DNA of 64,000 nucleotides from NCBI GenBank assembly GCA_964016885.1, contig OZ024747.1, positions 34,162,001 through 34,226,000 on the forward strand, given 5' to 3'. The translations under genes and the position numbers were made by a program. Each line of letters starts with the position of its first letter. Positions within the stretch are counted from its first letter, which is position 1. The notes beneath the pieces are model-generated. The model worked only from the letters and a program-made list of their open reading frames with translations, was not told the DNA's origin and searched no databases. This stretch comes from Eledone cirrhosa. Lineage: Eukaryota. This document shows positions 20,462-62,197 of the stretch, in pieces.

Positions 20462-20531
<70 letters not shown>

Positions 20532-21174: not shown

Positions 21175-21177
<3 letters not shown>

Positions 21178-22107
21178 AATTAATATATCTACCGACATGT
21201 GTATACAGATGCTTACCTACGCTAGCAGATATATATGTTTTGTCTTAGTAACTTTGTAGTTCAATGCAGGGGAATGCAGAACAATTATATGAAAGACGTA
21301 AATAAGAAAGTTATGAAAATTGACTTACTTACTAAAATTTCACTCCAACTAATTAGTTTCTGTAAGGGGATAAATACAGTTACGCAATACCTGTAGAGAA
21401 ACCTTACGTCATCAGGGAGTCTATTCTCAGCTAACCCACCAGGCAATGCGGGGACACTGGAAGCTTATATAACAATAATTCAGTGGATGGAAAAAATCGA
21501 AAAAATCGAGCGGGGCTAGATTTAAGCACTGAAAAATTCGCTTCCTCCTTGGTCAAGTGGCAAATTCAAAAGAATTAATCACGTGACACTGAGGTTAACC
21601 AGCTTGGAGTAGGGGTGCTATTAAGACGGAGCCTAGCTACTACTATCAGTCACAGTAGTAATTTGGCAAATTTTGCTCAACAAATAATTTGGAGAAGAAT
21701 ATAAAAATTAATATATCTACCGACATATGTATACAGATGCATACCTACGCTAGCAGATATATATGTTTTGTCTTAGTAACTTTGTAGTTCAATGCAGGGG
21801 AATGCAGAACAATGATATGAAAGACGTAAATAAGAAAGTTATGAAAATTGACTTACTTACTAAAATTTCACTCCAACTAATTAGTTTCTGTAAGGGGATA
21901 AATACAGTTACACAATACCTGTAGAGAAGCCTTACGTCATCAGGGAATCTATTCTCAGCGAAGCCACCAGGCAATGCGGGGACACTGGAAGCTTATATAA
22001 CAATAAATCAGTGGATGGGAAAAAAGCGAACAAATCGAGCGGTAACTAATTAGTTGGAGTGAAATTTTACTAAGTAAGTCAATTTTCATAACTTTCTTAT
22101 TTACGTC

Positions 22108-22112
<5 letters not shown>
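21175..22112 (-). mobile_element. PLE pLTR partial tandem (unit about 528 bp) with a short inverted tip
   Basis: 21180-21510 repeats at 21708-22040; 22043-22112 is inverted; a relative lies at 34840-35245 (+). Confidence 0.85.
21342..21420 (-). ncRNA. Type I hammerhead with extended stem II and palindromic stem III
   Basis: Reverse complement ACTCC CTGATGA C GTAAGG...CCTTAC A GAAA CTAATTAG TT GGAGT; second copy at 21870-21948. Confidence 0.85.
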
Positions 22113-22146
<34 letters not shown>

Positions 22147-22147
<1 letters not shown>

Positions 22148-22285
22148 CGAAGGAAATGTGGTAAGGAACCAGGTGGACCATAACGCACCAAAGTACTCAA
22201 TACTTGAGGTAGTAGAGTGGGTAATAGGAACCAGTAAGACCCCGACAGCTGAGCTCAAGCCGTTTCGACGGCTAATTCTGGACTA
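22147..22285 (-). mobile_element. Hydra-type PLE pLTR terminal fragment (contains the 3' half of the U3-A8 hammerhead)
   Basis: Matches the reverse complement of 59915-60053. Confidence 0.85.
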
Positions 22286-22494
22286 TTATATATATATATA
22301 ACTTTGATAATTGTCTAACTTATTTTCCTGCTCTGTAAAACACCTGATGTTCTTACATTGAGCTATTTCTCTGACTGGTAATAAGGTATTAGGAAATTAC
22401 TGATTTTCCTGTTTATAGTTGTTTATAGTATATACATAACTATAAATAGTATCATTATTATTATTACTACATACATTATTATTATTACATACAT

Positions 22495-22890
22495 GTGGAT
22501 TGGCAATATCGGTAGAGGGTCGGACGCCATGCTTTGCAGCAAAGAGTTACGGCCCTGTATGGTCTGAGTTCAAATCCCGCCGAGGTTAACTTTGCCTTTC
22601 ATATTTACAGGGTCGATAAAATAAAGTACCAGTAATACACTGGGTAATTGCTGGCCTTGTGCCAAAAGTAGAAACAATTATTATTATTACATACATAAAG
22701 GGCGGTGAATTGGCAGTATCGGTAGAGGGTTGGACGTCATGCTTTCTAGCATAGTTATGTCTCTTTACATTCTGAGTTCAAATCCCGCCGAGGTTAACTT
22801 TGCCTTTCATCCTTACGGGGTCGATAAAATAAAGTACCAGTAATGTACTGGGTAATTGCTGGCCTTGTGCCTAAAGTAGTAACAATTATT
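22495..22890 (+). mobile_element. Two tandem Meta-domain SINEs
   Basis: Same A/B boxes and central domain as 19098-19490. Confidence 0.82.
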
Positions 22891-23559
22891 ACATACATAT
22901 ATATGCATATGTGTATGTGTGTGTGTTTACCAAGTCGTTATTAAGTATCTATATTGGCTCTTGATTGTATATAGAGATACCTTACCACTTCTTGACTATA
23001 CCTCATTGTTTATTTCATTCTTTTCCTTCTGTGAATGTAATCTTTTTATCTGTATCCAAATGTCTCTCTAATAATTGATACTATTTATATCACAAATGCT
23101 AAATTTTACAAACCTACACATACATAGAAGATGAAGTTTACAAGTTGTTATACATGCAAACACACGCTGACACACACACACACACACATACACCCCACGC
23201 ACACGCACATATAAACGTGGAGGCACTCGAGAGTGTTTGTAACAATTTGTGAAAATCCAGCTTTTGTGATTTTAATAGCATCAATTATTAGAGTGACATT
23301 TAAACACAAACCTGAAGATGATCTAAACATAGATTTCCATAAAGAAATTGATACTTTCGTAAGAGGAAATAGTAAAATACAGAAAGAAAGAGGGAAAGGG
23401 CGAGATAGAGAAAGGAAGAGGGGAGAGAGAGAGAGATAGAGGAATCAAGAGGGGAGAGAGGAATATAGAGAAATATAGTTAGGAGAGAGTGAGACAGAAC
23501 TTTTAGGAGACAAGAACAAAGGATGATGCGAAAGAGAAAGTGGGTGGAAGATAGAGATT

Positions 23560-24654: not shown

Positions 24655-24830
24655 GGGGGTCGATTAAATCGATTCCAGTGCATCACTGGTACTTTATTTT
24701 ATCGACCTCGTAAGGTTGAAAGGCACAGCTAACCTCGGTGGGATTTGAACTCAGACTGTCTAGGGCCATAACTCTATGCTGCAAAGCATGGTGTCCGACG
24801 CTCTACTGATACTGACAATCCACCGCCCTT
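24655..24830 (-). mobile_element. Meta-domain SINE
   Basis: Reverse complement of the family consensus (GGCGGTGGATTGTCAGTATCAGTAGAG...GAGTTCAAATCCCACCGAGGTT). Confidence 0.8.
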
Positions 24831-26009
24831 AATCTTAGATAAAATAATTATCTGAGAATGCGGCTTAGATGTCAATAATAACAGGAAAAAGCGACTTATT
24901 TTCTAATATTTTAATAATTTTTAATGAATTTATTGTAATTTTATAGATTACATTGTTTTTATATGGTTTTATTCTTATTATATGTAATTATTTTTAGTTT
25001 TCGGTTCTTGTTTTGATTTACTTTTAACATATGTTATTAAGTGCGAGAAATGGGTTCCACCCTGCTTACCCCCATGTCGGACAGAATATATGTTCCTATA
25101 ATTTTCGTGTCTTTTAATATTTTTCCATGAAAAATTTCCATTACTCACGATTGTGTTAGGACATAAAGTTCTTTGTTTTCATTTTTTTTCTCATATCTTT
25201 CTTTGTAGCGAATGTAATACAGTTATTTAAATCATGAGCATAATTGAGATCAAAAAGTTTTTTAATATTTGGCCACCAATGTTTAATTTTGTGAAGGTAC
25301 GGGTCCGTTCTAGTGGTTAGTGTTGTTGGACACGGCATAATGAGGCTGTAGTTTCGCTTCCCAAAACGAGTGGCACAGTGTGTGCTTGTGTAATTATATT
25401 TTATTTCTCGTTGCTCCTTCTGCCAAAAGTTTTCAACGGCGTTTATTGTCAGCACTGGAAATATTAATAATCCCTTTGCTTCCTTGCTGGCTGTTGTTTT
25501 AGTTCTATATAATTCAGGCAACTTTATCTGCCTGGAGGGCGAGAGATTGGCGGAATTTATATGCCGTCGGATTAAATGACTTGATATATGTTCCGATTCA
25601 CTGTGCTCTGAATTCACATCCCACTGAGGTCAACTTTGAATTTTTCTCTGCCGAGGTTAAAAAATAAAGTATCAGTTCACTAACTAAAGTATCAGTCCAT
25701 TTTCTCTATCTTTCTTTATCATTCTTCCTTAATCTCTCCTGTATCTCTGAAAGTAATCGGTTCTGTTCCGGCCTGGTGACGGTTGTGCTCCTCCAGCTTT
25801 AAAATGATTAAGAGTGTTTTTGGACGGCACACTTACGACTCCATCCGGACGTATGTGCTCTTTTCTCTTTTTTTTTTTTTGCTTGGGCAAAAATAAAGCA
25901 AATAAATTCACGTCCGTTAAAAGTTGCACAGAGAGGAGCCTCTCTCTCAAAGCTGACTATGATATGATTACTTTTCACCTTATTTATGCATTTGTATTAC
26001 ACTACACGA

Positions 26010-32437: not shown

Positions 32438-32569
32438 ATAATAATAAATTTGAAGACTATGATCCAAAGAGGGCTCGATAAGGATAAATATATATAAAAT
32501 ATATAAGAACCGTAGAGCAAATATTTATTAAAATAACAGATTAAAGTTTAAGCAAAGAATCGCTCCTTA

Positions 32570-34435
32570 TATATAATATAAGATCAAAAGATGGTTAAAA
32601 GAGTTCCAAGTATTTTATTATGCGCATCTCAAAAACAAATATCATCATGGGATGATATGTGCGTTCTCATCAGATAAAATAGGGAAACATAATATGAAGC
32701 TTAAAAAACACTTGTGAGCAGTGAAGTTTTAAATCAACATGTGAAAAATAAGGTAAGATGGATATATGAGATTGGGAAAAAAAGGAGGGGTGTGTACGAA
32801 ATGGTAAGGAAGAGGAAGAAAGAAAATAAAGGATGAAGTGGGAGGAGTATAGGAAGGAAAGGTGAAAGAGGAGGAGAAATGAGTGATAGAGAGAGGGAAA
32901 TAGCCTTTACAACTGAGAAAACATTGTTTCACAGAGAGAAATTAAAAAACCTTTGGAAGATAATAGATAATTTGAAATTAAAAGTTAATGAGGTTTATGG
33001 ATGTTGATGTTTATGATTAAAGAAAAAGGAATTAAGAATAGTATTAAAGGTTTATATATTGAAGGGTTTAATAATATGTGCGAAAAAAAGAATTTATTAA
33101 TATGTATTATTAAAATAAAATATTAATGATATTAAGTATATAATGTGAAAGAAGGAGAAGAATAAATTAATTATGAACATAGAGGAATTAGTTAGATTTT
33201 AAGTTTGTTTTTATGTATTGTAATATGTAAAAGTAAATAATAGGTTTAGAACGAGCACGGAAGGAGAGAAGAAAAAAGAAAATTTAAGGAAGAAAAAATA
33301 TCTAACGTCAAAAGGTATATATGTTTACAAAAATGTCCTAATGGTAATATTATTATGTATTAAAAAATATAGTTTGTATGGCCAATGATATGAGGAAAAA
33401 TGAAAAAATGGAAAAATGGAAAATGCTGTAGAGAGTAATAATATGAATTGAGAAGTAATTGGGAAGTAAAAGTTACAGATTAAAGATTAGAAAGTAAAAA
33501 AGAAAAAAAAGGAGAGAAAGGAAAAGGATAAAAGAAGAAAGATAGGGGGACCTCTAACGATATAGAATGAGTAAATTGTATACTGAAATAAGGTAGAAAG
33601 ATGGGTATATTTGTAATAGATATAAAGGCCTTTGAGAAAAAGAAGATTTTAAACTAATTATGTATTGATATATTAGCTGTATACTTTATGGAAAGTTCTA
33701 TGGGATTTATGCAAGCAGAGCGAGAATAAATCCCTACGTCTATTTATTATAGAATTAAAATTAGATATAATGGTAAATTTCTCGGCTAGGCAGAGATTAT
33801 ATGTTCTGGATAGGGAAGAATTCTAGTAAGGTAGGGGTTGCAAACCTTCCGCCAAAAGATCTTATAGTTAATATGTTTGTCTTTTAAGGAGTTCCGAGAA
33901 TGCCAATTCCTTCTTCTTTAATCATAAACATCAACATCCATAAACCTCATTAAATTTTAATTTCAAAATCTTTTAAAATTATCTATTATCTTCCAACGGT
34001 TTTTTAATTTCTCTGTGAAACAATGTTTTCTCAGTTGTAAAGGCTATTTCTCTCTCTCTATCACTCATTTCTCCACCTCTTTCATCCTTCCTTCCTATAC
34101 TCCTCCCACTTCATCCTTTATTTTCTTTCTTCCTCTTCCTTACCATTTCCTACTTTATTGTTCATATGTTGATTTAAAACTTCACGGCTCACAAGTGTTT
34201 TTTAAGCTTCATATCATGTTTCCCTATTTTATCTGATGAGAACGCAAATATCATCCCATGATGATATTTGTTTTTGAAATGTTTTTGAAATGCGCATAAT
34301 AAAATACTTGGAACTCTTTTAACCATCTTTTGAACTTATATTATTTATACTCCAGTCCTATAAACAGCGGAGTGCTACTTATCCGATATTTGCATTGCTT
34401 TATTGTTTCTACAAAAAAACTCACCTCCTACATTA
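32570..34435. mobile_element. PLE 3' region bounded by inverted pLTRs of about 450 bp (32570-33035 / 33905-34345)
   Basis: The same peptide (MKQCFLSCKGYF..) appears on opposite strands; each arm has the TGCGCA-type hammerhead. Confidence 0.8.
34225..34306 (+). ncRNA. Type I hammerhead (TGCGCA stem III family)
   Basis: TATTTTAT CTGATGA ... GAAA TGCGCA TA ATAAAATA, with an 11-bp local duplication before GAAA. Confidence 0.78.
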
Positions 34436-34766: not shown

Positions 34767-35114
34767 AATTAGTATATCTAGTAACATATATATACACACA
34801 CATATCTGTGTGTATATATATGTTACTAGATATACTAATTCTTTATAATTATCTCCAAATTATTTGTCGAGCAAAATTGGCCAAGACTGCTGCTATGGTA
34901 ACAGTCAGGCTGCTCTCTTCTTAACAAACCACTTTCCACTGATTGACCTCGATGTCACGTGATTGATTCTTTTGAATTTGCCAGCGACGCAGTAGGCAGT
35001 GATTTTCTCAATGGATAGGAATTTAGTCCACGCTTTGCTTTTTTCCATCCACTGAATTATTTTTGTATAAGTTCCCAGTGTCCACGTATTGCCTGGAAAC
35101 TTAGCTGAGAATAT

Positions 35115-35196
35115 ACTTCCCTGATGACGAAAGGCTTCTCCGTACACTTCTTCGGAAAGTATGTTTATTCCCTTTCAGAACTAATTAGTTGGGAGT
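35115..35196 (+). ncRNA. Type I hammerhead, relative of 21342-21420 (one A of GAAA lost)
   Basis: ACTTCC CTGATGA C GAAAGG...CCTTTC A GAA CTAATTAG TT GGGAGT. Confidence 0.7.
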
Positions 35197-35243
35197 GAAA
35201 TTTTAGTAAGTAAGTTAATTTTATAATTTTCTTATTTTACGTC

Positions 35244-35307
<64 letters not shown>

Positions 35308-35565: not shown

Positions 35566-35730
35566 TTGGTCGGACGCCATGCTTTGCAGCATAGAGTTAC
35601 GTCCCTTTATGATCTGAGTTCAAATCCCACCAAGGTTAACTTTGCCTTTCATCCTTACGGGATCTATAAAATAAAGTACCTGTCACGCACTGGGGTCGAT
35701 TTAATCGACTCACCTCTCCCTACAAAAATT
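35566..35730 (+). mobile_element. 5'-truncated Meta-domain SINE
   Basis: GAGTTCAAATCCCACCAAGGTTAACTTTGCCTTTCATCCTTACGGG. Confidence 0.78.
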
Positions 35731-36679
35731 AGGCATTATTTTAATTTTTAAAGATTTATACTTCCTTTTAGACTTCAGATATTTTTTGAAAGCTAAGCAT
35801 TGGCCCCTAAAATACAACGGGGGGCTCTGCAATGCTACCGTGGGCCCTCTGGGGCAACCTGGTAACCTGGCCAGTCCGCGACTGTACATGTATAAAGCCG
35901 GCCATTTATCGCTCGTATACAGGAAATTGACTGGCCAGTCTGCTGATATGCAAATCTGGCTGATCAGTGGATCTGCTGATATGCAGATCTGACTGATCAG
36001 ACAGTGTGCTAATATGCAAATCAGGCCGATCTGTCACTGTGTATTTTTGAAAATAGCATATATTTTCACTAGCTCTGACAGTTTGGCAGCTGAACAGTGA
36101 GCTGTGCTGATGAAGGGTGATACCTAGAAACATTAGTGTCTACAGTTCTGTTCGCATGCCAACATCAGAGCAAGAATGGAGTGTTCATTCTACTGACAAG
36201 GCTATACAATTGAGGCTTGTTTGCATAATTGCAAACGGATAGAATGTCATTATTAATATTCGAAAAACTCAAATTACATTTATTGTATTCAGCCAAATAG
36301 AGCGAACTTTTCTTTTTTATATATATATGGCTTCTACATGACTAGAATTGTTTCATTCTGGAGAAATCATCAGGATGTCGACTGTCCAAGTAATATGGTG
36401 GTATTTATATATTTTCTGGTGGTAGGAGAGGGTGGTGATTGGATGGGTGTAGGTCATGACGGAAAATGCCACAATGAGTATAAATATTTACATATATCAC
36501 ATATGAGGGCACGTAAATATACTAAAGAAAATGAATCCCTATGAAAATTGAGAAAATGATAGACGTTTTTAATCTATTTTCGGGTTATTCAACCCTGATC
36601 AAAAGACGTGTATATCACCCAATCGACCACAAGAAAATATTTATTTGATTTGTATATCAACTCATTCGTACATAGTACT

Positions 36680-37400
36680 TCTTTCCTTTTCTTTTTCTTT
36701 TCTTCTTCTCTTAATCTCTTCTTATCACTTCCTTCCACTCCCTGTCGTCTTGCTTTTCCCTTTTCCTCTTTCGCGTACCCCAAGGCAGCCCATCGAGCTT
36801 TCATAGCCTCAGTACCCCAACCCCATTAAAACTATATATAGCAATGGCCGAAAACGCAATACCAGCTAAAAATTTAGCAACTGTTTTAAACTCTAGAGAT
36901 TTTTTAATTATTTTTACTATTTAATTTTATTATTTAAAATCTTTTTATTCATCTTTTAATCTCAACTTATTAACCTTTAATTCTATAACGTCCCCCTCTC
37001 AGTATCTTTTTTCGCCTGCTTTCTCACTAGCCTAATTTCCTACACACTCCTTATAATTTGCTGTATAGAATTCACTTTCAACGCTTGACAGGCTCCACCT
37101 ACCCCCTCATTATTCTACAGACAAGTTCAGCCACCACGCCCAACCCTACCCACTGCAATGAAAGATTTAATTGTGTTTACAAGAAATGTTAACCAGTCCT
37201 TTTGACAATCTTCCCGTATAAGGAATTACGGTGTGAAAATTTCAGCTATTTATTACCACGCTAAAAATTCTAATTTAGTCCAGAAATAGCCTTCGAAACG
37301 GCTTGAGCACTGTCGTCGAGGTTAACATTTTTCCTATTACCCACTCTACTACCCTAAGTATTGAGTACTCTGGTGCGTTATGGTCCATCTGGTTCCTTCG

Positions 37401-37859: not shown

Positions 37860-39180
37860 TTATGCATAATTCTTCATCCTACTTTAGACTTTATACAGAA
37901 TTATACCGGCATTATCATAAACTCGGTGAGATCCTAACTTATATTAATTGTCCCTCAGCCCCCCCCCCCTCATCTGTTCTTAAATCCACTGTAAAGTCTA
38001 TTTCACACAGAATCTCTAGGCTATCCGCAAATGAGAATATATTTAATGTTATTTCTTTATGCTATAACAAAGCTATTTCTAAATCAGGCCATACGGATAA
38101 AATGTACTACTTACCTTCTGTTATATCCACCCAACAATTAAGTAATAATAATGTAATCACACAGAATAGTATCCATAGTAAGAATAGATTTAAAAGCGCT
38201 AATATAAAAAGGTGTACTCCTGGTAATGACCCGCTACCTACTCCTAGCAATACATTTAGAATTAGCTCTAATAGAAAACCTAACCAGTTGCTTTCCTTTA
38301 ACACTAAATATTCATCCGTAGCTACCCTTGAAAATTTAAAGAATAATTAAAACTCACTTATAAACCCATCTATTATTCCTAGTAGCACGCGCTGTAAGAG
38401 ATCTCCTAGTGTATCCTGGCCAAATCCTCCCTTCTCGGGTAATGTAGCTTCTAACCTTCTTAGAATGTTCTTCACCATCCTGCGTAATAACTTTCCTCCT
38501 GACCACAAATACTATAAACTTTTTAACAAAAATGACGTTAAGATTTCTTTCTCTAGCACCCTTAACTTTGCCAATTATATCACCTTTAGTAACCATAAGA
38601 AATTAAATGACCATAGAGCATCCCTTTCTGATGATATACTTCTACCTAATAACTATCTACATATAAATAATTCTAACTATAATTCTACTCCTGTTAAACC
38701 CCTTATGTCCTCGCCTGTATCCTCTAGTCCTGCACCTTCACCTACACTATCTACTAATGTTAACCGTAAATGTAATTGCAGAAAATCTGACAACTGCCCT
38801 CTGAATAAGAATTGCCTTACTAATAACATAATGTATAGATGCACTGTTCAGACTTCTAATGACACTAAAACTTACATTGGAGCTACTGCTAACTCTTTCA
38901 AGACTCATTTTAATTCTCATACAAATTCATTTAGGAATAGTAGCTTCTACTTCACTGGCTAGACATGTAAATGCACTTAAACTCTCCACTATTGAATACT
39001 CTCTTGTTTGGGGTGTTTTAGCCATATCCTCCCCATACAAAGGACATAAGGACCATTGCGATCTTTGTCTGAACCTTATTTCATAACCTTATATAAACTC
39101 CACCCAATTAATGACTGCAGTGAGATAGTTATTAATTGCTATCACTGTTTGAAATACTTATTCGCTAATAGATATCATCT
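37860..39180 (+). pseudogene. Decayed Hydra-type PLE: RT thumb plus CxC linker plus GIY-YIG
   Basis: SISHRISRLSANENIF; NPPFS; NFPPDHKYYKLFNKNDVKISFS; KCNCRKSDNCPLNKNCL; KTYIGATANSFK; CDLCL. Confidence 0.88.
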
Positions 39181-43329: not shown

Positions 43330-45815
43330 AAAGAGGAAATAATATTATTTACAAACATGGATTGATGGAAAACGTTCCTTCTTTGAGGAGACAAATGGCC
43401 GTCCGGGACTGGATGTGTTTTCCCTTTTTAGAGAATTAATATGTAGGGGAGGTAATTCACAGTGTGAGGTTAGGGTAGGAGAAAGAGAGGAGAGGGAGTA
43501 ATTCATTTATTTAAGAAATAGGAATAGGCAGGGTGTGAGGGAGGTAACTCCTTAGAGAACACAGAAATTTGAGATATGGGTAACGTAGAAATAGAAGTAA
43601 AATAGGTTGACACTAGTGTTCACTGTTCATTCTAGTTTTAGTTTAGTCCGAAGTTTAGTCCATTTAGAAGGGGTTGGAATTTTTTAATGAAGTACGTTTC
43701 CTTATTAGTGCGTTGGATGAAAGAAGCGTTGTCTATGACATTGTAGAGGGGGAAAATTATAACGTTTGGTAGTTGGTCAGGTGCAGAGTTGGCGATATGT
43801 TCACTAAGAGCAATCTTTCTGTATTCCTGTATTTTGATTTGTGATCTATGGACGGTCATACGTTGTCGGAGGCTATTTTTTATCTGTCCTATGTAGTTCT
43901 CAGACAACCTGAGCAGGTCAAAACATAGATTAGGTTTTCAGATGCACATATAAAGTATTTAACTGTGAAATGTTGTCCTTGTTTAAAGTGGAATGTTGAA
44001 CCTTCTATTAGATGTATGCATATACCACCGTTGAGTCTTCTGCATATTTTTTTACTGTATGGTTCTTTGTGAGGGCTGGCTGGATTTGGGCTTGTGTGAG
44101 GATGTTTTTATGGTTTTAGGTTTTCTTTTGATCTTTATGATGTTGTGTGTTTGGAGCATTTTATTCATTCTTGGGTCTTTATTTAGTAAAGGATCGTGTC
44201 GAATGCCTCATTGTTGTGTGTGGAGATGTATGGTAGAGTTTTCTGTTTCGGTCCATCCTTGGTTTGAGGTGTCTAAGTTCCTGGATATTGAGTTTTAGGG
44301 CACGTTGGAATCCATTGTTGATTAGGGAAGGTGGGTAATTTCTGCTGATAAGAGTGTTATTAAACTCTTCTAATCGTGTGTAGCATGTGTATTTATCAGA
44401 AACTATTGTGCAGATCCTTTTGGCTAGGTTATAAGGAATTTTCATTTTGGTATGGCGAGGGTGGAACGAGTTAAAGGGAAGATATTGGTTGGAGACTGTG
44501 TGTTTATAGTATATGTCTGTTTCTATTTTGTTGTTTGTTTTCTTGATGAGGATGTCAAGGAAAGGGAGTTGTTCGTGGCAGTATTCCATTGTAAATTGAA
44601 TGTTTGTGTTGAGTCTATTTAGAACGGTTTTAAACTCAATAAGTCTTTCTATACTTCCATGCCAGAGGATGAAGCAGTCTTCCAAATATCTCTTCCAGGT
44701 TTTTCTATGTGGATGTAGAAGGGTTTTCCATATTTGTCTAGAAATTTTCGGTAGAGAGTGGTTTCCAAATATCCCATGAAAAGGTTGGCGTATGACGGTG
44801 TTACTTTCGTGCCAATGGCAGTCACACATTTCTGTCTGTAGTATTGGGCATCGAATTCGAAGTAGTTATTCTCCAAGATGAATTTGAGGCCATCCATCAC
44901 AAATCCTTTAAAGATGCGCCGTGGAAGTTCATTAGGGTAATTTTCAACCCATAATTGGATTGCCTTTATACCTAGGTTGTGTGGGATATTGGAATAAAGA
45001 TTGATTACATCAAAGGGTACTAGTAGGGTATGTTCATTATTAAGTGTTATTAGCAGGTGGTTGAGCATATCTAGGTCGTCCATATGTAGCTTTTAATGTG
45101 TTCAGGAATGGTTTAAGCAGTATATCTAGGAAGTTGCTTAGGCGGTGAGTTTCAGAAGTGGTACCTGCTATTATGGATCTTAATTTGAAGTCATTAGGAG
45201 GGGGGGACATTGATGAAAATGTCTGTGGCTACTTTGCAGGCCTTGTTCGCTTCTTCGCTTTTGTGTATCTTTGGGATACCGTAGAAAAGACTGGGTCTGC
45301 TTTTGAAGTTAGTGATATAGTTGTACTCCTTGTCGGTAATACCTTCTTAGTAACGGGTATTTAGCGATTTTAGGTTTCTCATTATTTCTGTTGGCTGTAG
45401 TGTTGAGCCTTTTCGTAGTATGCTTCGTTTTCTAGAGTTGAGAGTACTATGGTTGTGTAGTATTCTGTCTTCATAAGGACTACTGCACGCCTCTTTGGTA
45501 GTGTAGTATTCTGTCTTCATAAGGACTTACTGCACGCCTCTTTCATTGTTAGGGTTTTTGTCGTTCTTTAAACTGTTAAGACCATTCCATTCTTTTTTGT
45601 TGAGGTTTGGTTTGTGTTTATGTCTGTGTAGGTGATGGTATGGGTAATTAGTAATGTGTTTGTAGAATTAACCGAGGAATTTGTTCTTACCTTTTGGTGG
45701 GGTATAGTTGCTTCTATTTCTGGCTATAGTCGTCCTCATTGTATTTGTCGTGTAGTTGCTCGCTAAGTCTTAGTTTTCTACAGAATTCTGCAATATCTTC
45801 CTCCATTTCAGGTTA
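43330..45815 (-). mobile_element. Decayed Neptune-type PLE (RT plus GIY-YIG)
   Basis: FDVINLYSNIPH, AIGTKVTPSYANLFMG, WKRYLEDCF (decayed YxDD), LPFLDI, HPRHTK, ENYIGQ..LRQRMTVHRSQI, FQPLLN. Confidence 0.92.
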
Positions 45816-46499
45816 TTTTGGGCGATATATACTATAATAAAGGGAGGAGTGCAGGACAGCGTCCGATTTATATCTTTTAATCCAGTTAGTAAAATAAGTT
45901 GGATTACTTTGAATACATAATGAATGAATATTACATAATTTATGGACTAAATTTCGTAACTCTTGATTACATTTTTATAATTTAATTGCTTATTTAAAAT
46001 TAACTTCTTTTAAATGTTTCAAATTTCTAAACTGTCCGCATATCACCGCCACCACCACCACCATTTCAACTACCATATATATAGAAAGAGAGTGTGTGTG
46101 ATAAGATTGATACATATAGATAGATAGAGTAATTATGTGACAGATATATACATATATATATATACAAAGAGAGAGAGAGAGAGAGAGAGTGAGAGAGAGA
46201 GACAGAGAGAGTGAAAGAGATAGATGAAGAGATTAGGATTTTTTCAACACGCTGACGCGTATGTATGCATATATACATATAATTATATAATATAATCGCG
46301 CAAACACAGACAAACTTACAAAAATACACGCTCACGGACATACATTCACACAAATACACATACTTTCACACAAACATATACATGCATTCACACATATACA
46401 TTTCCAAAAACACACATTCGCACATATACATTTACACAAACACACACATACAGTCATGATAGCAACGTTCGATGAATTGGAAATGTGAGGTTAAAACAA

Positions 46500-48130
46500 G
46501 TATGACGTTTTATGTATTTATTACCAACACAGTTTTATTTAAACTCATATGTATTACTCTTCAGAAATGATAGGAAATTAGATAAAGAGGTTGCATGCTT
46601 AAGCTTAGAGTTCTTGAAAGTATGAAGATGGGGATTATACCTCGTCTTAAACCTTTTCGGTGTGGAACCGATATAGGTTTTGGTGTTGGTAGAAGTTGTG
46701 ACAATGCAGGAATAAATAATATTCTTAACAAGACAATTTCTATTAAGAGGGCATACATTATTAAGACTACAATTGCAATTATAATTATTGATTAAGCAGT
46801 TTTGTGGGTAAAGAGTTATTAGATTTAGATATATGAGGGCTAGACTTGCCATTATTATTCCAATATGTCCAAGAAATTAATGTGTTATGAGAGTGGTTAC
46901 TAACATTATTAGGTACAATATTGTTAAGCAGATCAACTGGTTGTGAATTGTTATTTAAGTTATAACAAGAAACATATTTACTAACATTCTTATTATTACA
47001 ACTTGCTATGTGATTAACAATGTTATGTGTGGTAGAGTAAGAGATTTTAATGGTATTTTTATTAATTAAATTATGGTACTTGTGATCAAGTGGGAAATTA
47101 TTTTCAGTAATAGAGAAGAACACTCTAGGTATATTAGTAGAAACATTTAAGTTGAAAGGTGGATTAAAATATGAATTAAGCTTTCTTCTATTCTTTTTAT
47201 TTTTGTTACTGATAAGTGCATCCTTATGATTATTACCTCCAATACTATGTTTAGTATTACAGAAGTTAGGTTTAATGAATAGACAATGCTTTTTATTCCC
47301 AACATTTTCTTGTCTTTAAGATATTTTTACTAGTACCGGGAGGAACTGTAGAGGGGCGTATATCATTATTTAAACTACTACTTTATTAGTTTGAATATTA
47401 GTAGTGTTTTTCTCATAGTCATATTATATGAAATAATTGTTTCTACTTTTTGGCACAAAGCCAGCAATTACCCCAGTGCATTACTGGTACTTTATTTTAT
47501 CGACCCCGTAAGGATGAAAGGCAAAGTTAACCTCGGCGGGATTTGAACTCAGAATGGCAAGGGCCATATTATATTAAATAATATTATGTTGTTTGTTACA
47601 GTCGGTAAAATAGTTTTTAGGCATAAAGCGAATTTTATTTCTAAAGCCAGAACGTGATAAAGATTCATTACGATAATGAGAATGTTGGTTAAAGATATCT
47701 TCATTATAAAATAAATTACTAATTCTATTAAATACACTTTTAATAATTGTGTTTAAGACATGTTGGTTAGAAATGGTATAAACATAAAAAGGTTTTTCAT
47801 TAGGTTTATGGTAAGGTGTAAAGGTTTTAGAATCCAAGCATACGATAACATCAAGGAAATTAACAGTTTTGGTGTTATAATACGTAGGTTAAAACTTTTC
47901 AAGAATTGATTTAATTCCTCCTTAGTTCTTTCAATTTTATATTTTTTATAATCTAAAATAAATAAGGCGTCATCGCGATATAATCCACCCTTCAGGTAAG
48001 AACATGTATTATGAATTTTATTTAAAAGGTACAATCCAACCAAATCTGTGACCTGTGCAGATTCACTAGACCCCATAGTGATATAAACATAATTAGATGT
48101 ATTCTTACAAGTCCATAATTGATCTTCAAA
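46500..48130 (-). mobile_element. Decayed Hydra-type PLE interrupted by a Meta SINE
   Basis: TMGSSESAQVTDLVGLY..GGLYRDDAL; PYHKPNE; FNPPFN; CNCSLNNVCPLNRNCL; KTYIGST. Confidence 0.88.
47432..47566 (-). mobile_element. 5'-truncated Meta-domain SINE nested in a PLE
   Basis: Reverse complement of the family 3' half, from the B box to the tail. Confidence 0.82.
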
Positions 48131-49371: not shown

Positions 49372-51525
49372 GTATGAGCCCGACAGCAGAGCTCAAGCCG
49401 CTTCGACGGCTATTTCTGGACTAAATTAGAATTTTTAGCCTGGAGAATAAATAGCCGAACTTGTCAAGGGGGTACTTCCTTATATGGGAAGATTGTAGTT
49501 GTCAAGAGGATTAGTTTAAATTTGTTGTAAACACAAATAAGTCTATCATGGCATTTGGTGGGATGTAGGGGTGGCTGAACTTGCCTGTAGAACAATCGGG
49601 GAGTGAGTGGAGTCGGTCAAGCATTGAAAGTGATATGTATACAGCAGATTCTAAGGATAGTGTATGAAATGGAGGAGGGAGGTTATAGATTAGGTAATTC
49701 GAATGAGAGTAGGAGACAATAAAAGATAATAGAAATAAATTAAAAAAATATATAAAATTAGTGAGAAATGAATAACATTTATTTTTTTAAATCACAATGC
49801 TATCTTACAATTACAGGTTAATAAGTTGAGAATAGAAAAAAATTGTAGAAATGGAGTAGTAATAAAACTGATATAAAATTAAAGGGGTCTAAAACATCTG
49901 CAATAAGTAGTTAGTAAAACGTATTCGGCCAATTCTATCTTAAATTTCCAGGGGTGAGGGAACTGATGCTACAGAGGCCCGCTAGGCGGCATCGTGGTAG
50001 GCGAAAGGGGAAAAGCAGACGAGGAAGAAAATAGGGGGTGGAAGGAAGTGATAGGATGAGACAGGGGGAAGAAGAAGACATAGAGGAAAATAAAAGAGAT
50101 ACATCTACCTATGTAAGCTGGGGTTTCCCCTAACTTATTCGGCGATTGAGGGCCTGGTTGTAATTAGGCGCATGTTCGTCGAATATCTGCTCATTAGCGG
50201 ACACACGAGATATGCGGAGGGAGATGTTTTTAACCAGGTTATTGGTGATGTTTAAAGGATGGTTAGATCGGAGGTGCATGTAGTGCAGGTTGTCGTTTGG
50301 TTTCCGGTATGCGTAGTACATATCATTTTTGAGGTTAAGGGAAATTAACTCGGGTTAGGGACGTTTGTAGGGCGATTTTAAATCGTATACAGTCCCGGAA
50401 GTGGTTGATTAGTTGTTTACGGACCCGATCTGTACTACTTACAACCAGGCCCTCAAGCGCAGTGGCTTCCGGGAGGAAATATCCTTTTATCCAGCTTCCC
50501 TTAGCGGAACCAGCAAGCGACACCGCCGCTCACGCAACGTGACGTGCTTCAATCCTCCCCATAATGCCGAGGTGGCAACATATATCGGGAAAATCTTCTT
50601 TAAGCTCCTCAAAAACACTTTCCACTACAAAACCGCTACCACAACATAATCAACAAAAATACCATCAAACTCTCGTACAGCACCACACCTAAATTCGCAC
50701 TAAACATCGTCTCCTCAAACAACAAAAACTCAACCCCTATGGAAGAAACAACCATCAGTGGAGAGCCAGCCAGGAGGTGTAACTGCCCTGATAGATCTAC
50801 GTGCCCCATCAATAACAAATGCCGAGAACGTAACGTCATCTACCAGTGCAACGTGAGGACGGACACCTCCAACAAAGCTTATATAGGATTAACCGCGTGA
50901 GACTTCAAGACCCGGCTCTACCAACACCGACATACTTTCCAAAACCCGGTCCGGCGATATGCCACTACACATTCGGGCCACAACTGGGACCTCCAAGATA
51001 ATAATATAACCTACAATCTCACTTGGAGCTTACTGTCCAGAGCTAACTCTTACACGAGAGGACGCCGTCCGTGTAACTTACGCTCAGAGGAAACATTACA
51101 AATGCGGTTTTCGAAGGACCAACTCCGAAAAAAGAAAGACGAACTTGTAACCGCATGCAAACACAGATTGCGTAGGACTTACCTCACCCTCAAACCCCAT
51201 AACGACCCGGGTGGGTAGAAACGGGCTGATATGTCTTCTTCTTCTCCCTGTCTCATCCTATCACTTCCTCCCCACTATTTTCTTCCTCGTCTGCTTTTCC
51301 CCTTTCGCCTACCCCGATGCAGCCCATCGAGCCACTGTAGCATCAGTTCCCCCACCCCTGTAATTTTAAGATGGAATTGGCCCAATACGTTTTACTAACT
51401 ACTTATAACAGATGTGTTAGACCCCTTTAATTTTGTATCAGTTTTGTTACTACTCCATTTCTACAATTATTTTCTATTCTCAACTTATTAACCTGTAATT
51501 GTAAGATAGCATTGCGATTTTTCTT
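49372..51525. mobile_element. Hydra-type PLE with complex inversion: pLTR (-) 49372-50120, RT fragment (-) 50135-50345, GIY-YIG part (+) 50436-51217, pLTR (+) 51230-51525
   Basis: Coding parts are closely similar to ORF 58242-59210; 49780-50095 is inverted relative to 51230-51525; decayed UUGACAA hammerhead at 49377-49473. Confidence 0.88.
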
Positions 51526-51529: not shown

Positions 51530-54500
51530 AAGTGGCGTTGAAGGTATTAAGATTTGTTTGGTTGTTGAATGTCACGCGAATAAGCACTATAAATTTCGTG
51601 CCAATTCGTGTTTCAAAAATTCTATTTTGATTGGTCGGTAGAAGTCACGTGAATGTTTAAAATGATTTTAGCGTGAGCTGGTTCTGCGCCAAATGTAGAT
51701 TTGTCGAAGAGTGTACTTTTCCGCTTGATTGAGTTGCAGTCATGTTGAGAGGTCAACAATTCAGGCGTCTATTAAGACAGATATATGTGTGTGTGTGTGT
51801 GTGGATGGACCAGTATTTTTGTGGTACTGGTAAAAATGGAGTATCTTATTTGATATTTTCAGTCATCTGCAAAAACGATTCTTTCAGAAGTACATCAATA
51901 ACATCAAAAATTAAAATGGTAAAATGATGTATAGTATTGTCATAACAACAAGGCGTGTATGAGTCCAGCCTGTACGTACTGAAAAGGGAATCCATTAGGC
52001 CTTGCCATATTGTATACTTGTGTACAAATATTTATGCACCCATCAATGTACAATACATGTATGCGTATGTGTATGTGTGCGTGTCGGCACGTGTATATCT
52101 ATAAACATCAAAAGGTATGCGAATTTGTGTATATTTGTGTTGCACCATAGAACATGTGTATTTACGTATGTCATTGTTTTTAGATGTGGATAGAAATGTA
52201 TGTAGGATGTATGCTGATTTAGGTATGTATGTCAACATGTGTATGTTGTGGGTTCGTCTTAGGAAGACGTGTTTAGACGGGGTCCGTATTTGTTAATAAA
52301 GTGATATTCCTTGCTGATGCTCTGGGTGTGGGTGGCATTATCTTTTCATTTGTAGAGGGGAAAGATTCTAAAGTTGAGATGATTTTGGACGGCACAGGTA
52401 TCAATGTGTTCACTCAGTGGTATTTTTCTATATTCCCGTATTTTGATTTGGGATCTATGGACAATCATGTGTTGGCGGAGGCTTTTTTTATTCTGGCCTA
52501 TGTATTGTTATCGACAGCCTGAGCAAGTTAATACATATATTAGTTTTTCTGATGCGCATTTTAAAATGTTTTTTTTACTATAACACATTGTCCTTGTTTG
52601 AAATAGAATTCCGAACCCTCTATTAGGTTGATGCATATACCACAGTTGGGTCTATCGCATTCTTTTACTGTGGGTTTCGTTGTTGTGGTTGGCAGTACTT
52701 TGGCATATGTTACGATGTTTTTCATTGACTTAGATTGTCTTTTGCTCTTTATGATATCGTGTGTTCGAAGGATTTGGTTCATTCTATGGTCCTTTTTTAA
52801 TACAGGGATGTTCTGGAGGATGGTGTCAAAGACCTTATTGTTGAGGGGGTTGTGTGTGGAGATGTATGGAAGAGCTTTTAGTTTCGGTTGTCTAACTTTA
52901 GGGTGTCTAAGGTCCTGGGTACTGAGTTTTAGGGCACGCTGGATTCCAGGTGTTGGATTCCAGGTATCCCATGACTAGGTTGTCATAAGTGGGGGCCGCT
53001 TTCGTTCCCATAGCGGTCCCAGATTTCTGCCTGTAGAATTTGTTATTAAAAACGAAGTAATTATTCTCCAAGATAAATTTGATTCCTTTTATCACGAATT
53101 CTTTTTTGATGCGTTGTGGGAGTTCATTGTGGTAATTATCCAGTCAGAATTGGATAGCTTCTATTCCTAGGTTGTGGGGGATGTTGGAGTATAGGTTGAT
53201 TACATCGAACGTCACTAGTAGGGTTTGTTCAGAAAGGGGCATGTTAGGGAGGTGATTGAGCATATCTAGGTCGTTCCTTATATAGCTTTTGATGTGTTTG
53301 AGAAAAGGATTGAGAAGGTATCAATGAAGTTGCTAAGGCGGTGGGTTTCGCAAGCGGGGCCTGCTATTATAGGTCTTAATTTGAGATCATTGGGTGTGGG
53401 GACATTGATGACTAAGTATGTGGCATCCTTGCATGCCTACTTATTAATTTGCTTTTATGTACTTTAGGGATACCGTAGAAAAGGCTGGATTTACTTGTGA
53501 AGTCTGTGATGAAGCTGAAATCCTTGTTAGTGAGTCCTTCTCTGTATGGGTTGATCAGAGTTTTTAGGTTTCTCATAATTTTCTGTTCAGCCGCTTCGTA
53601 GTATGATTCGTTTTCCAAAGTGGAGAGCGCTAAGTTGATATAGAATTCTGTCTCCATTAGGACTACTGCACTCCCTTTATCAGCCTCTTTAATTGTAATA
53701 GTTATGTCGGTTTTTAATCTATTTAATTCATCCCATTCTTTCTTGTTGAGGTTTGGCTTGTGCTTTTGTATGTGCAAGTGTTGGTAAGGGAAGTTTGTGA
53801 TGTCTTCACAGAATTCGTCCAGGATTTTATTTCTAACTTTTGTTGGGGTGTAGTTGCTTCTATTTCTGGCTAATGATTCATCCTCATTGTACTGGTCGAA
53901 TAGTTCCACACTGTGTCGTCAACTTCTACAGAATTCTGTGATGTCTTCGTTCATTTCATAGTAGTTTGGACGGAGGTGGGGTCAGTGCGAATTTAAGACC
54001 CTTGGAGAGTAAGTTGATAAGGTTTGGAGTTAGTTCTGCACTAGTTAAATTGATAAATGTTATTACTCTCGGTTTCTCCTCCCTGTCTTGTGTTATTTTG
54101 TTTGCCTGTATCTGTGTGCTGTGTCTAAAAAATGGTTGGGGTAGAAGGGTTGTCTGCTGATGTTAAGTGGTCTCTTTTTTTTGTTATATTCCTTGTTTTT
54201 GTAAAAAGTGGTTAGGGTTCGTGGTTATGGATTGAATGGGGTGGTCTTGTATTGCGAGTATGGATGTGTGTTTCTATGTGCCATGTTGGATTGTGGTATT
54301 ATAGGTGGCCTATGTTGTTGGTTGTATCGTGTGGTGTGGGTTGTGTTGTGTATTTTTGAAGCGAGAGTTGAGAAAATGGAAATTAACTTGCTGTCCTCTT
54401 GTGGCGAGGAAGTTGTTGCGTCTATCATGGTAGTGATATATTTCCCTGTTTGACGATGAGGCATCCGCGTAGTAGTTTAGTGATTTGGTATGGTATCTCC

Positions 54501-56985: not shown

Positions 56986-57088
56986 TGAGTATCGTTAAAT
57001 TTGCAAATTTACTTATAATAATCTGGTAATTTCATTGATTATATAACAATGAAATATATATATATATATATGTATATGGACCAGTAAG

Positions 57089-57182
57089 ACCCCGACGGCT
57101 GAGCTCAAGCCGTTTCGACGGCTAATTCTGGACTAAATCAAAATTTATCCTGGTATTTAAATAGCCGAGCTTCTCAAGGGGT
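57089..57182 (-). ncRNA. Type I hammerhead, U3-A8 core variant
   Basis: Reverse complement of 59868-59961. Confidence 0.78.
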
Positions 57183-58241
57183 AATTCCATATATGGTCAA
57201 AGTGATTGTCAAAAGTTAGTAGTAATTCTGTGATTGCAAATTAGTAGGGGAGATGGTGGCTAAACCTGCCAGTAGGAGAAAAAGAGGAGGGGGTGGAGTA
57301 GACCCAATCATGCGTTGGTAGTGCCAGCTACAGCTGGGCATGAGGTCAAAGAAGATACTGGGGAGGGGGAGGGGGAGGAAGTCGAAACGGTAGGTAGAAC
57401 AATGAGGGGTAAACAAATATATATGAAAGAAAAAATACTGAGAGTGATGAAAAGCGAATAAGTCTCTAGCTATTGTTAGGCTAGATAAATAAATAAATAA
57501 ATAAAGAAAGAAAGAAATAAAGAAAGAAATAAAGAAATAACGAAATAAGTAAATAAACTAGGTGGGACGAAATAGGCAAGGACCCTTTTCAGAGGTATAA
57601 GTACGTAAATCATACGGTGACGGGTCAACAAATGGGGCCAAAATACTAAAGAAACTACCACGAAATAAATAATAAAGGTTTCTATCCAGGGCACAAGGCC
57701 AGCAACCACCCAGTGCAGCAAAGTAAACTAGTACGAAAAAAATATATACTAATGCTAACTCTAAAGGTACCGCCGCGCTACAAAAGATCTAATACAAGCT
57801 ACATGAGAGTTCGTACGAAGTAAAGGTAGATTACGGAAAAATAAATTCAGAATCCTACCCGCCCAAGTGAAAAGAAAGAAATACTGAAACGAGAAAATAA
57901 GGCATAAGTGCCACTAAGAAATATAGAAGGCACGGAAAATAGGGGGAGCGGTCGGAAAAAGGGGGCAAGTATCCGAAGTCTAACACAACTGCTATAAAAA
58001 GCGGAGTCCGCCAAATCTAGGGGGTGGGGGTACTGAGGCTACAAGGGGCCAAAGGGCAGCCTCGGATGGGCGAGAAAAGACGCCGACAAAGAAGAAGAAC
58101 TGGGGTAGAAGGACTAAGGAGGGATGGGGGAAGAAGGAAATAAAGGAAGCGATAGAAGAATAAAAAGAAGATCTTACGTCTCCCTTGGCAAGCAGGGTTT
58201 ACCCATTGCAAAATCGGCAAGTGGGGTGTTATAGCCCTAGT

Positions 58242-59380
58242 CTACACCCCCGGGTCATTATGGGGTTTGAGGGCGAGGTAAGTCCTACGCAATCTATGTT
58301 TACATGCAGTAACCAGTTCATCTTTCTTGTTTAGGAGTTGGTCCGTCGAAAACAGCATTTGTAAAGTTTCCTCCGAGCATAAATTGCACGGACGGCGTCC
58401 TCCCGTGTAAGAATTGGCTCTGGACAGTAATCTCCAAGTGAGATCATAGGTGATGTTGTTGTCCTTGAGGTCCCATATGTGGCCCGAAAGTGTAGTGGCG
58501 TGACGCCGGGCCGAGTTTCGGAAGGTATGTCGATGTTGGTATGGCCGGGTCTTGAAGTCACATGCGGTTGGTCCTATGTAAGCTTTGTTGGAGGTGTCCG
58601 TCCTCACGTTGCACTGGTAGATCACATTGCGGTCTCTGCATCTATTGTCGAGTGGGCAAATGGATCTATCCGGACAGTTGCACCTCCTAGTCGGCTCTCC
58701 ACTGCTATTTAGGTTATTTCTTCCATCGGGGTTGAGTTTTTTGTTGTTAGAGGAGACGATGTTTTGTGCGAAGTTTGGTGTAGTGCTGTAAGAGAGTTTG
58801 ATGGTATTTTTGTTAATTATGTTGTGGTAGCGGTGTTGTAGTGGGAAGTGTTTTTCAATGAGCCTAAAGAATAGTTTCCCGATGGGAGTTGTCACCTCTG
58901 CGTTGAGGGGAGGATTGAACCATGTTACATTGCGTGAACGGCGGTGTCTCCTGCTGGTTCCGCTAATGGGAGCTGGACAGTAGGATATTTCCTCCCGGAA
59001 ACCACTCAGCTTCAGGGCCTGGTTGTAATAAGGCGCATGTTCATCAAATATCCGCTCATTAGCTGACAAACGGGATATGCGGAGGGAGATGTTTTTGACC
59101 AGGTTGTTGGTGATGTTCCTAGGATGGTTTGATCGGCGGTGGATGTAGTGCAGGTTGTCATTAGGTTTCCTGTATGGGTAGTACAGGTCGTTTTTGAGGT
59201 CGAGGGTCACGTCCAGGAAGTTTACTCGGGTCAGGGACGTTTGTAGGGTTATTTTAAATCACCAGTCGCGGAAGAAGCTGATTAATTGTTTCCGGAACCG
59301 ATCTGTACTACTGGGGTTGTACCCTTTAAGGGTAAGGAGCCCATCATCACGGTACAATCCACCACCGAATGCATTGTACT
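58242..59380 (-). pseudogene. PLE polyprotein 3' half: RT motif YRDD, thumb, CxC-x4-C-x5-C linker, GIY-YIG endonuclease
   Basis: GGGLYRDDGLL upstream (one stop) joined to the 322-aa ORF: WFNPP, CNCPDRSICPLDNRC, VIYQC..AYIG, CNLC, LLNKKDE. Confidence 0.92.
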
Positions 59381-59465
59381 GAATGGATTGTACCGTGATG
59401 ATGGGCTCCTTAAAAGGGTCCTTGCCTATTCCGTCCCACCTAGTTTATTTACTTATTTCGTTATT

Positions 59466-59513
<48 letters not shown>

Positions 59514-59867
59514 TATTTATTTATCTAGCCTAACAATAGCTAGAAACTTAGGTCGTAGATCTTACTTTTATACTCTTTTCTCTTTACACTTATTCGCTTT
59601 TCATCAATTTCAGTATTTTTTCTTTCATATATATTTTTTTACCCCTCATTGTTCTACCTACCGTTTCGACTTCCTCCCCTCCCCCTCCCCAGTATCTTCT
59701 TTGACCTCATGCCCAGCTGTAGCTGGCACTACCAACGCATGATTGGGTCTACTCCACCCCCTCCCCTTTTTCTCCTACTGGCAGGTTTAGCCACCATCAA
59801 CCCGACTAATTTGCAATCACAGAATTACTACTAACTTTTGACAATCACTTTGACCAAATATTGAATT

Positions 59868-59961
59868 ACCCCTTGAGAAGCTCGGCTATTTAAATACCAG
59901 GATAAATTTTGATTTAGTCCAGAATTAGCCGTCGAAACGGCTTGAGCTCAGCCGTCGGGGT
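59868..59961 (+). ncRNA. Type I hammerhead, U3-A8 core variant
   Basis: ACCCC TTGAGAA G..CGGCTA...TAGCCG.C GAAA CGGCT-TGAGCTC-AGCCG TC GGGGT. Confidence 0.8.
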
Positions 59962-60064
59962 CTTACTGGTTCCTATTACACACTCTACTACCCTAAGTAT
60001 TGAGTACTTTGGTGCGTTATGGTCCACCTGGTTCCTTACCACGCTTCCTTCGTTATATATATGT

Positions 60065-61589: not shown

Positions 61590-62197
61590 AGATTGACAGT
61601 GACGACAGAGCGTCAGTCAACATGCTTCAAGGCATATAGTTACGGCTCTATATTGTTCTGAGCTCAAATCTTACCGAGGTTTGCTTTGCATTTCAACCTT
61701 ACCGGCTCGATTTAATCAACTTTCCCCTCCCACCAAACATTTGTTGGCCTTGTATCAAAGTCAGAAACCATTATTAAATCGTTTCAGACATAAATATAAA
61801 TGTTATATTATCAAGAACGATTGTTGTGTCTAGGTAGTCATGTAGATTGTTGAAGGTGCTACAATGTATAAATGAGGCATTTGATCCTAAATTGATTTTC
61901 TTACTTAAAAAATATTGTATATAATTTTCCGTTTACTCAAGTAAAACATTTTATAATGGAATATATGGCCCACACCAAACTTACTTTGCATATAATTGTG
62001 TTACACCATATGCAATTCTATATTGTATTTTTATAGTTTTTATTCTAGAGTTACCGTTTATCGTCAAGTATTACAGATTATCAAGACGGATAGCATGCTT
62101 TGCAACATAGTTTTACGTCTATGTACGTTCTGAATTCAAATACCGTCAGGGTTAGATTTGCCTTTCCTCCTTACGGAGTCGATAAAATGAAGTACCA
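61590..62197 (+). mobile_element. Two old Meta-domain SINE remnants (61590-61772 and 62085-62197)
   Basis: TCTGAGCTCAAATC..TTTGCATTTCAACCTTACCGG and TTCTGAATTCAAATACC..CCTTTCCTCCTTACGGAGTCGATAAAATGAAGTACC. Confidence 0.65.

Follow-up and report, generated by a model that had tools for sequence, protein, structure and literature searches.

The stretch of DNA analysed here, referred to as the window, comprises 64,000 nucleotides of Eledone cirrhosa and is an AT-rich animal sequence dense in microsatellites. Within it lies an insertion of a Penelope-like element (PLE) flanked by (TA)n. The open reading frame (ORF) of the element, on the minus strand at 58242-59400, is 5′-truncated and extends from RT5 to the thumb and through a CxCX5C linker to a GIY-YIG-type endonuclease with CxxC and CxH; it contains one in-frame stop codon, near 59260. 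On its 3′ side are the 3′ untranslated region and the sense end repeat (57074-58241, minus strand), which stop at (TA)n 19 nt beyond the hammerhead cut site described below and carry no tail. The other side of the ORF is occupied by an inverted copy of the 3′ untranslated region and end repeat (59409-60053, plus strand), of which 59409-59976 matches 57592-57074 and the last 77 nt (59977-60053) form a tail that is followed by (TA)n. At the inversion junction there is a short fold-back of about 40 bp (59333-59412, no strand assigned) derived from the YRDD region of the ORF and joined to the inverted 3′ untranslated region through a short common motif, an arrangement that resembles the outcome of snap-back priming with a subsequent template switch.

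The CxCX5C linker with CxxC and CxH is a mark of the Hydra clade of PLEs (Craig et al. 2021, PMC8557442), and the translated ORF possesses all three, the latter two near its end, and no CCHH. By these motifs, the element around 59868-59961 is assigned to the Hydra clade. Both of its 3′ ends reach (TA)n, the target of Hydra-clade elements, and with the PLEs described in that paper it shares the C-terminal endonuclease, a hammerhead near the 3′ end, the one-sided tail and an inverted 5′-truncated copy, which is the typical PLE layout as drawn there. Relatives of the ORF (15 of 2079 candidates) are 595-732 aa long, with E values of 3.6e-73 to 6.6e-57, and possess the RWK or RWR and DKT motifs; the ORF scores 489 bits against its own profile. 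A Pfam search with eight window proteins gave a GIY-YIG match only for a Neptune-like ORF discussed below and none for the ORF at 58242-59400.

Each end repeat of the insertion carries a type I hammerhead motif. The copy at 59868-59961 (plus strand) lies in the inverted repeat and is antisense to the ORF, so that it is an identical copy, found by sequence match, at 57089-57182 (minus strand), 3′ of the ORF, that represents the sense hammerhead; the copy at 59868-59961 is the inverted by-product. The descriptor scan gives a stem I of five Watson-Crick pairs (59868-72/59957-61) and a core box at 59873-79 that reads U3 U4 G5 A6 G7 A8 A9. Stem II begins with G10.1-C11.1 (59880/59933) and continues, after a 2x1 internal loop, with 6 bp (59883-88/59926-31) closed by a loop of about 30 nt. 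GAAA follows at 59934-37, stem III consists of 5 bp (59938-42/59950-54) plus A15.1-U16.1 with a 7-nt loop, and GUC lies at 59954-56, so the predicted cut is 3′ of C59956. All the core nucleotides of a type I hammerhead are present (U4 G5 A6 A9, G12 A13 A14, A15.1-U16.1 and H17). The first-pass annotation, which had proposed a full-stem hammerhead with a U3-A8 core in a Hydra-type PLE repeat, was accurate in its letters, stems, GAAA and GUC. On inspection, alternative registers of the core, with C59872 as their start, were ruled out for disrupting G5 and A6. The descriptor matches the window seven times and 30 shuffled windows five times in total, and none of those five reaches a score of 16; the 59868-59961 motif scores 17, which disfavours an origin by chance. 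The fold energy of 59868-59961 is by itself unremarkable (z -1.19). No hammerhead family is among the 61 Rfam matches to the window at E<=1, a search that likewise missed the C3-G8 hammerheads of the window.

A second hairpin competes with the hammerhead for the same nucleotides. The annotation had also pointed out that AGCCGU-CGAA-ACGGCU could sequester the GAAA, and this hairpin, at 59927-59942 (plus strand), indeed forms six Watson-Crick pairs (59927-32/59937-42) around C11.1-G12-A13-A14. It is incompatible with stems II and III and is the favoured fold of the predicted monomer. It arises from a 5-bp helix common to stems II and III, which allows the 3′ strand of stem II to pair with the 5′ strand of stem III. 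The RNA thus has two mutually exclusive folds of near-equal predicted energy, as would be expected of a switch: -25.2 kcal/mol for the decoy fold and -23.5 kcal/mol for the active fold, a gap of 1.7 kcal/mol in a model that lacks the tertiary energy of the core. The predicted probability of the decoy in the monomer is 0.81-0.94 (0.81 at 37 C and 0.90 at 20 C), and that of the active fold is 0.10 at 37 C and 0.035 at 20 C. Cotranscriptional folding is predicted to begin with stem II (P 0.90-0.97 up to 59940), which is displaced once 59942 has been made (decoy P 0.98).

Stem III and its loop (59938-59954, plus strand) form a 16-nt palindrome, perfect except for one extra U at 59942, and are the predicted dimer arm; the self-duplex of 59937-59955 is predicted at -30.7 kcal/mol. 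In the ensemble of two 94-nt motifs, stem II has a probability of 0.84-0.90, intermolecular stem III 0.99 and the decoy 0.01, and dimerisation is predicted at -13.4 kcal/mol at 37 C, although a model of this kind would pair any palindromic stem-loop with itself. The arrangement of three helices about the core, with helix I open and G10.1-C11.1 paired, is a minor fold in the predicted monomer and the major one in the predicted dimer. When 274-277 nt of context are included, the predicted dimer becomes less clear-cut (stem II 0.13-0.58, stem I at most 0.22). The insertion's own two full copies are inverted, so they could not dimerise in cis.

All six decoy pairs are present in four of the five window copies that span the region, and five of six in the fifth. 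Elsewhere, 0-1 pair is found in 13/13 other hammerheads, and by eye the decoy is absent from all 26 published Hydra rows. The decoy is peculiar to the U3-A8 Hydra-clade family of 59868-59961. The suggestion that it constitutes an on/off conformational switch fared less evenly than the hairpin itself: the decoy dominates the predicted monomer and all but disappears in the dimer, but no covariation accompanies it among six window copies, and the sister copy at 49467 prefers stem II (P 0.79-0.87) over a decoy that is itself weakened there (0.05-0.11). Stem II of the window lineage contains two mismatches that most relatives in public sequencing runs lack. A selected switch is possible but unsupported.

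Four other copies of the family are present in the window. A 97-bp copy at 10071-10167 (minus strand), with (TA)n on both sides, begins at the first base 3′ of the predicted cut and reaches the tail end, and a 140-bp copy with tail at 22146-22285 (minus strand) has its 5′ end in loop II, at the equivalent of 59915. A decayed hammerhead of a sister subfamily at 49377-49473 (minus strand), adjoining ORF pieces at 50142-51194, retains U3-A8 with C at N7, but A15.1 has changed to G (giving GAAG) and two stem III pairs are broken or weakened. A more decayed sister copy at 37228-37322 (plus strand) has G3 with A8. The 3-8 Watson-Crick pair is thus U-A in three of the four window copies that span it, and U3-A8 occurs in two subfamilies about 20% apart. 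The annotation had held that only N7 varies, which is right for the U3 to A9 box of the 49377-49473 copy and wrong more widely, given the changes at A15.1 and stem III of that copy, the G3 of 37228-37322, and the frequent C3 of the sequencing runs. Two-sided changes, the sign of helix covariation, were seen at none of 23 pairs across six window copies; one-sided variants add pairs to stem II.

Four public sequencing runs (X1, X5, X7 and X13) were aligned to 59780-60050 at 80% likeness; their best word share with the window is 0.48, so the species may differ. Position 3 is C in 207 of 498 X13 reads, in 20% of X1 depth (25 contigs) and in one X5 contig, and in none of X7. A>G changes occur at a single place each in X1 and X5, at 59833, which puts G8 below 2% in both; X13 has five A>G places, and G8 is possible there. 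Because the only A>G place in X1 and X5 is 59833, a sizeable part of the family must have C3 opposite A8. This C3-with-A8 core, in which the essential 3-8 pair is mismatched, is abundant in X1, X5 and X13 under two organism labels. We considered that the C3 reads were C3-G8 copies with one inserted base and rejected this, there being no insertion listed near 59876 and no free A>G place in X1 or X5. A strictly conserved TTGANAA, on which the annotation had relied, is contradicted by X1, where about 20% of contig depth combines C3 with A8. The C3-with-A8 core may be an intermediate, with G8A having come first, or a reversion, and at this share of X1 depth it may mean that the core is no longer selected. 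The commonest kind of change is C>T in X13 and, in X1, C>T jointly with T>C.

The frequent natural variants of the motif strengthen stem II only. At 59881, C>A (42% of X1 depth) creates a 10.2-11.2 pair in stem II, and at 59925, T>A (35% in X1; 2775/4028 X13 reads) lengthens the stem II helix. The 59950 A>T variant (about 30% of depth) removes the last pair of stem III and shortens the palindrome. In X1, depth rises about 20-fold from the 5′ half of the hammerhead to the stretch 3′ of loop II, the jump falling at 59905-59935, and this reflects either many short 3′-end copies like 22146-22285 or diverged 5′ halves. Depth steps in X13 coincide with AATT sites, are read as library cut sites, and were excluded from the truncation analysis. 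The two 3′ ends of the insertion, at the equivalents of 59976 and 60053, recur among window copies, and 99 contigs of X1 and 3538 reads of X13 show loose (TA)n behind 59976. Two such ends would fit the two reverse-transcription start sites of the Anolis Poseidon element PAc (Frangieh et al. 2024, PMC11167929).

Four scans taken together yielded five hammerhead families in the window, two with U3-A8 and three with C3-G8; combining them was needed because a 5-bp stem II requirement missed the Neptune motif and one scan missed an AT-rich C3-G8 family. The second U3-A8 family, which the annotation had placed in a different PLE clade, does exist: a minimal hammerhead of a Neptune-like element has its sense copy at 13916-13953 (minus strand) and an inverted copy at 16110-16147 (plus strand), with an ORF remnant at 15296-15778 (minus strand) whose linker is of Neptune type, which matches GIY-YIG in Pfam and which is assigned to its clade by motif only. 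The same motif recurs at about 17007-17044 (minus strand) and 17121-17158 (plus strand), which makes four copies; this latter pair belongs to a short head-to-head inverted element (16908-17269) without an ORF. Neptune-like remnants at 43663-45824 and 52272-53972 gave no hammerhead in the window scans.

The C3-G8 families lie at 20753/34233/32683, at 21415/21943/35121 and at 36107. The first (20529-20845 and 32568-34432) has a long AT-rich stem II, and its 34233 copy has a duplicated GAAA box; the inverted repeats of 32568-34432 surround the end of a Hydra-type endonuclease (33682-33819, minus strand, iE 7.7e-6). Hammerheads of the second (21175-22111, minus strand; 34811-35244, plus strand) are in tandem, 528 bp apart, with no ORF seen, which suggests partial-tandem end repeats or a retrozyme-like arrangement. 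The third is a single compact hammerhead at 36099-36148 (plus strand) with a descriptor score of 17. Decayed remnants of Hydra-type ORFs occur at four or more additional places (18480-20426, 37886-39074, 46535-48127 and 50142-51194). The window also contains a SINE-like repeat, of a kind reminiscent of octopus genomes, in many copies (19084-19496, 22475-22895, 24659-24851, 35568-35709, 47427-47568 and 62094-62197) and, at 1-9638, several decayed ORF pieces of non-LTR retrotransposons, which we take from their look to have a C-terminal zinc knuckle and a restriction-like endonuclease.

With three of the five families C3-G8, one of them 3′ of a Hydra-type endonuclease remnant, the lineage-level shift to U3-A8 proposed in the annotation does not hold, and the change is family-specific. 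Its corollary, that many hammerheads would be hidden from standard screens, is true of descriptors demanding CUGANGA, which miss both U3-A8 families; Rfam, on the other hand, also missed the C3-G8 families, and a U3-A8 descriptor was already in use in 2014. The Hydra and Neptune-like U3-A8 cores likely arose independently, to judge from the C3-G8 cores of Hydra relatives and from motifs that have no likeness outside the core. C>T and G>A changes are common in an AT-biased genome, so a parallel origin would call for no special selection, and enrichment of U3-A8 through AT-biased mutation is possible.

Within the Hydra clade, U3-A8 is found in none of the published rows: C3-G8 is present in 26/26 rows of File S2 of Craig et al. 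(2021), which represent 25 of the 27 listed families, Octopus bimaculoides included, the other two being marked core-only and 3′ incomplete. The published Hydra hammerheads have a helix III of 3-4 bp and a short loop II, in contrast to the U3-A8 core and longer stem III of the present family, whose hammerhead does not resemble the one of Hydra-1_Obim of Octopus bimaculoides. Five genome-contig loci (L012-L016) contain Hydra-type Penelope elements on contigs of bacterial metagenome-assembled genomes and are likely animal host DNA. Three of them (L012-L014) gave C3-G8 in 8/8 hammerhead matches, with four hammerheads within 1.3 kb in L012, and L015 and L016 gave no hammerhead match. An exact 19-nt pattern found 11 metagenome-contig loci, whose likeness extends over no more than 19-25 nt (GC 0.47-0.65) and which were judged to be chance; among viral contigs, 0 of 114 candidates were confirmed. 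The part of the literature covered contains no earlier U3-A8 hammerhead within the Hydra clade.

The U3-A8 core is itself not new, having been published both from nature and from PLEs. Natural U3-A8 hammerheads with the same compensatory 3-8 covariation as the 59868-59961 motif were reported to be active in vitro (Perreault et al. 2011, PMC3088659), but as far as that paper describes them in its relevant parts, they have no tie to Hydra-clade PLEs and neither a decoy nor a dimer arm, both of which are found here. The PLEs of Schistosoma mansoni provide about 1,300 U3-A8 matches beside about 2,000 C3-G8 (Cervera and De la Pena 2014, PMC4209133). In common with that U3-A8 group, the 59868-59961 motif is a type I hammerhead in PLE end repeats with a short helix I, a long helix II, G10.1-C11.1 and a palindromic helix III region, in a genome that also has C3-G8 families. 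It possesses the self-complementary 15.2-16.2 segment that allows min-HHRs to dimerise, but min-HHRs have a helix III that is absent or only 1-2 bp, against the 5-6 bp of the present motif, and an unpaired nucleotide that separates position 9 from 10.1, whereas here G10.1 is directly 3′ of A9. The large loop II and the decoy are further differences from the Schistosoma motif, and the Schistosoma PLEs belong to the Cercyon rather than the Hydra clade (PMC4209133).

Two other systems bear on how such a hammerhead could work. Type I hammerheads of amphibian retrozymes cleave weakly as monomers and efficiently as dimers through a palindromic helix III (PMC7229834), which is the behaviour predicted here; the amphibian monomer owes its weakness to a helix III of insufficient length, whereas the present helix III is long and the predicted block is the decoy. 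Dimer cleavage is the published mode for both PLE and amphibian type I hammerheads (PMC4209133, PMC7229834). Poseidon PAc of Anolis shares with the present family an end-repeat hammerhead, two reverse-transcription starts that define a tail, AT-rich targets, and a hammerhead that needs help to fold, as is predicted for this one; protein-assisted cleavage is known for that element (PMC11167929). Its core is C3-G8, and the relevant sections of the study report neither reads nor RNA ends at the cut site, in contrast to the one genomic copy that starts there in the window. Mutants of the Anolis core and hammerhead still inserted in vitro. In a pairwise-mutant screen of another hammerhead, the only rescue of the 3-8 pair was the G-C swap, other single and double mutants being low, so cleavage by a U3-A8 core may be weak. 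Taken with the Anolis mutants, the screen also suggests that cleavage may be only loosely required.

The 97-bp copy at 10071-10167 begins at the equivalent of 59957, or possibly one base earlier through CpG decay, and possibly represents run-off cDNA of the 3′ product of ribozyme cleavage, which would have been primed from the tail end. It is one of only two short copies in the window (n=1 for a cut-site start), and a rough, post hoc estimate of such a start by chance is 1-3%. The runs have no depth step at 59957, and no loose end at 59957 is among the rows listed.

We present a hypothetical model in which the 59868-59961 motif is the hammerhead of a Hydra-clade PLE family in which U3-A8 has replaced C3-G8, and which would be a weak self-cleaver acting mainly, on the folding predictions, as a dimer paired through stem III; we give this a probability of roughly 0.55. 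A lone copy would fall into the decoy hairpin, and two copies would exchange the strands of stems III and I to build two complete cores. The U3-A8 pair would have arisen by two GC-to-AT transitions inside the family, separately from the Neptune-like case, and may have been tolerated since spreading would depend only loosely on cleavage. In a tandem transcript the cut would trim the element RNA, and reverse transcription would then start 3′ of the cut, at the 59976 or 60053 equivalent, on nicked (TA)n DNA.

The most serious alternative is that the ribozyme is relaxed or dead and that the family spreads without cleavage, U3-A8, C3-with-A8 and the decoy all being products of AT-biased drift. The C3 share in X13 and X1 with no A>G at position 8 in X1 or X5, the insertion of the Anolis hammerhead mutants in vitro and the lack of cut-site RNA ends in that study (PMC11167929), the misfolding of the predicted monomer and the decayed state of the window's two other full copies all speak for this reading. 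A dead ribozyme would not be expected, however, to keep U3-A8 in two subfamilies so far apart, to accumulate common variants that restore rather than break stem II pairs, or to leave a copy that starts at the cut site, and a second family has also kept a Watson-Crick U3-A8 pair; we regard this explanation as somewhat unlikely. A rather less probable reading makes the decoy a selected on/off switch that holds the monomer off until a partner copy or an element protein refolds the RNA. The loss of the decoy in the predicted dimer, its retention across window copies and absence from other hammerheads, and the protein-assisted cleavage of another PLE (PMC11167929) all agree with it. Stems II and III, though, already constrain the decoy bases, which do not covary, the stem II mismatches of the window lineage are missing from most relatives, the sister copy favours stem II, and a gap of less than 2 kcal/mol is small where tertiary energy is outside the model.

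We consider it very improbable that the motif, by virtue of its 5-6 bp stem III, cleaves efficiently as a monomer in the manner of fungal and protist PLE hammerheads, with the decoy an artefact of the folding program. PLE ribozymes with a long helix III do cleave as monomers (PMC4209133), stem III here exceeds that of the published Hydra motifs, and stem II forms first in predicted transcription, but the decoy is predicted to take over as soon as 59942 has been transcribed, and a monomer would have no need of a palindromic stem III and loop. A host lineage that moved its PLE hammerheads to U3-A8 is scarcely credible: two families of two clades with this core in a single 64-kb window, against 0 of 25 published Hydra families, would seem to point that way, but most families of the window and the Hydra family of Octopus bimaculoides have C3-G8, and the genome of Schistosoma likewise holds both cores side by side (PMC4209133). 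Returning to the weak, dimer-acting hammerhead that we prefer, its most far-reaching form would be dimer-gated, in that the decoy locks the monomer off, pairing of the palindromes activates both cores, and cutting in vivo is recorded as 97-bp insertions reaching from the tail end exactly to the cut site; the conjunction of all three we hold to be unlikely.

The U3-A8 core is itself of small import, since it is already in print for PLEs. What is new is the occurrence of this core in the Hydra clade, a helix III that is long and palindromic and is accompanied by a decoy, a subfamily with C3 opposite A8, and a copy that starts at the predicted cut site. Searches with CUGANGA strings would miss two of the five families of the window. 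A long helix III held off by a decoy would, if true, be another route to dimer-only cleavage. A family that contains both U3-A8 and C3-with-A8 is a natural experiment on the swap of a catalytic pair and on the need of cleavage for spread. For the in vivo role of PLE hammerheads, genomic copies that start at the cut site, of which the window holds one, are a cheap handle, and if the interpretation is true, such insertions would amount to a fossil trace, in DNA, of cleavage by the Penelope ribozyme, which was sought earlier in RNA data without success.
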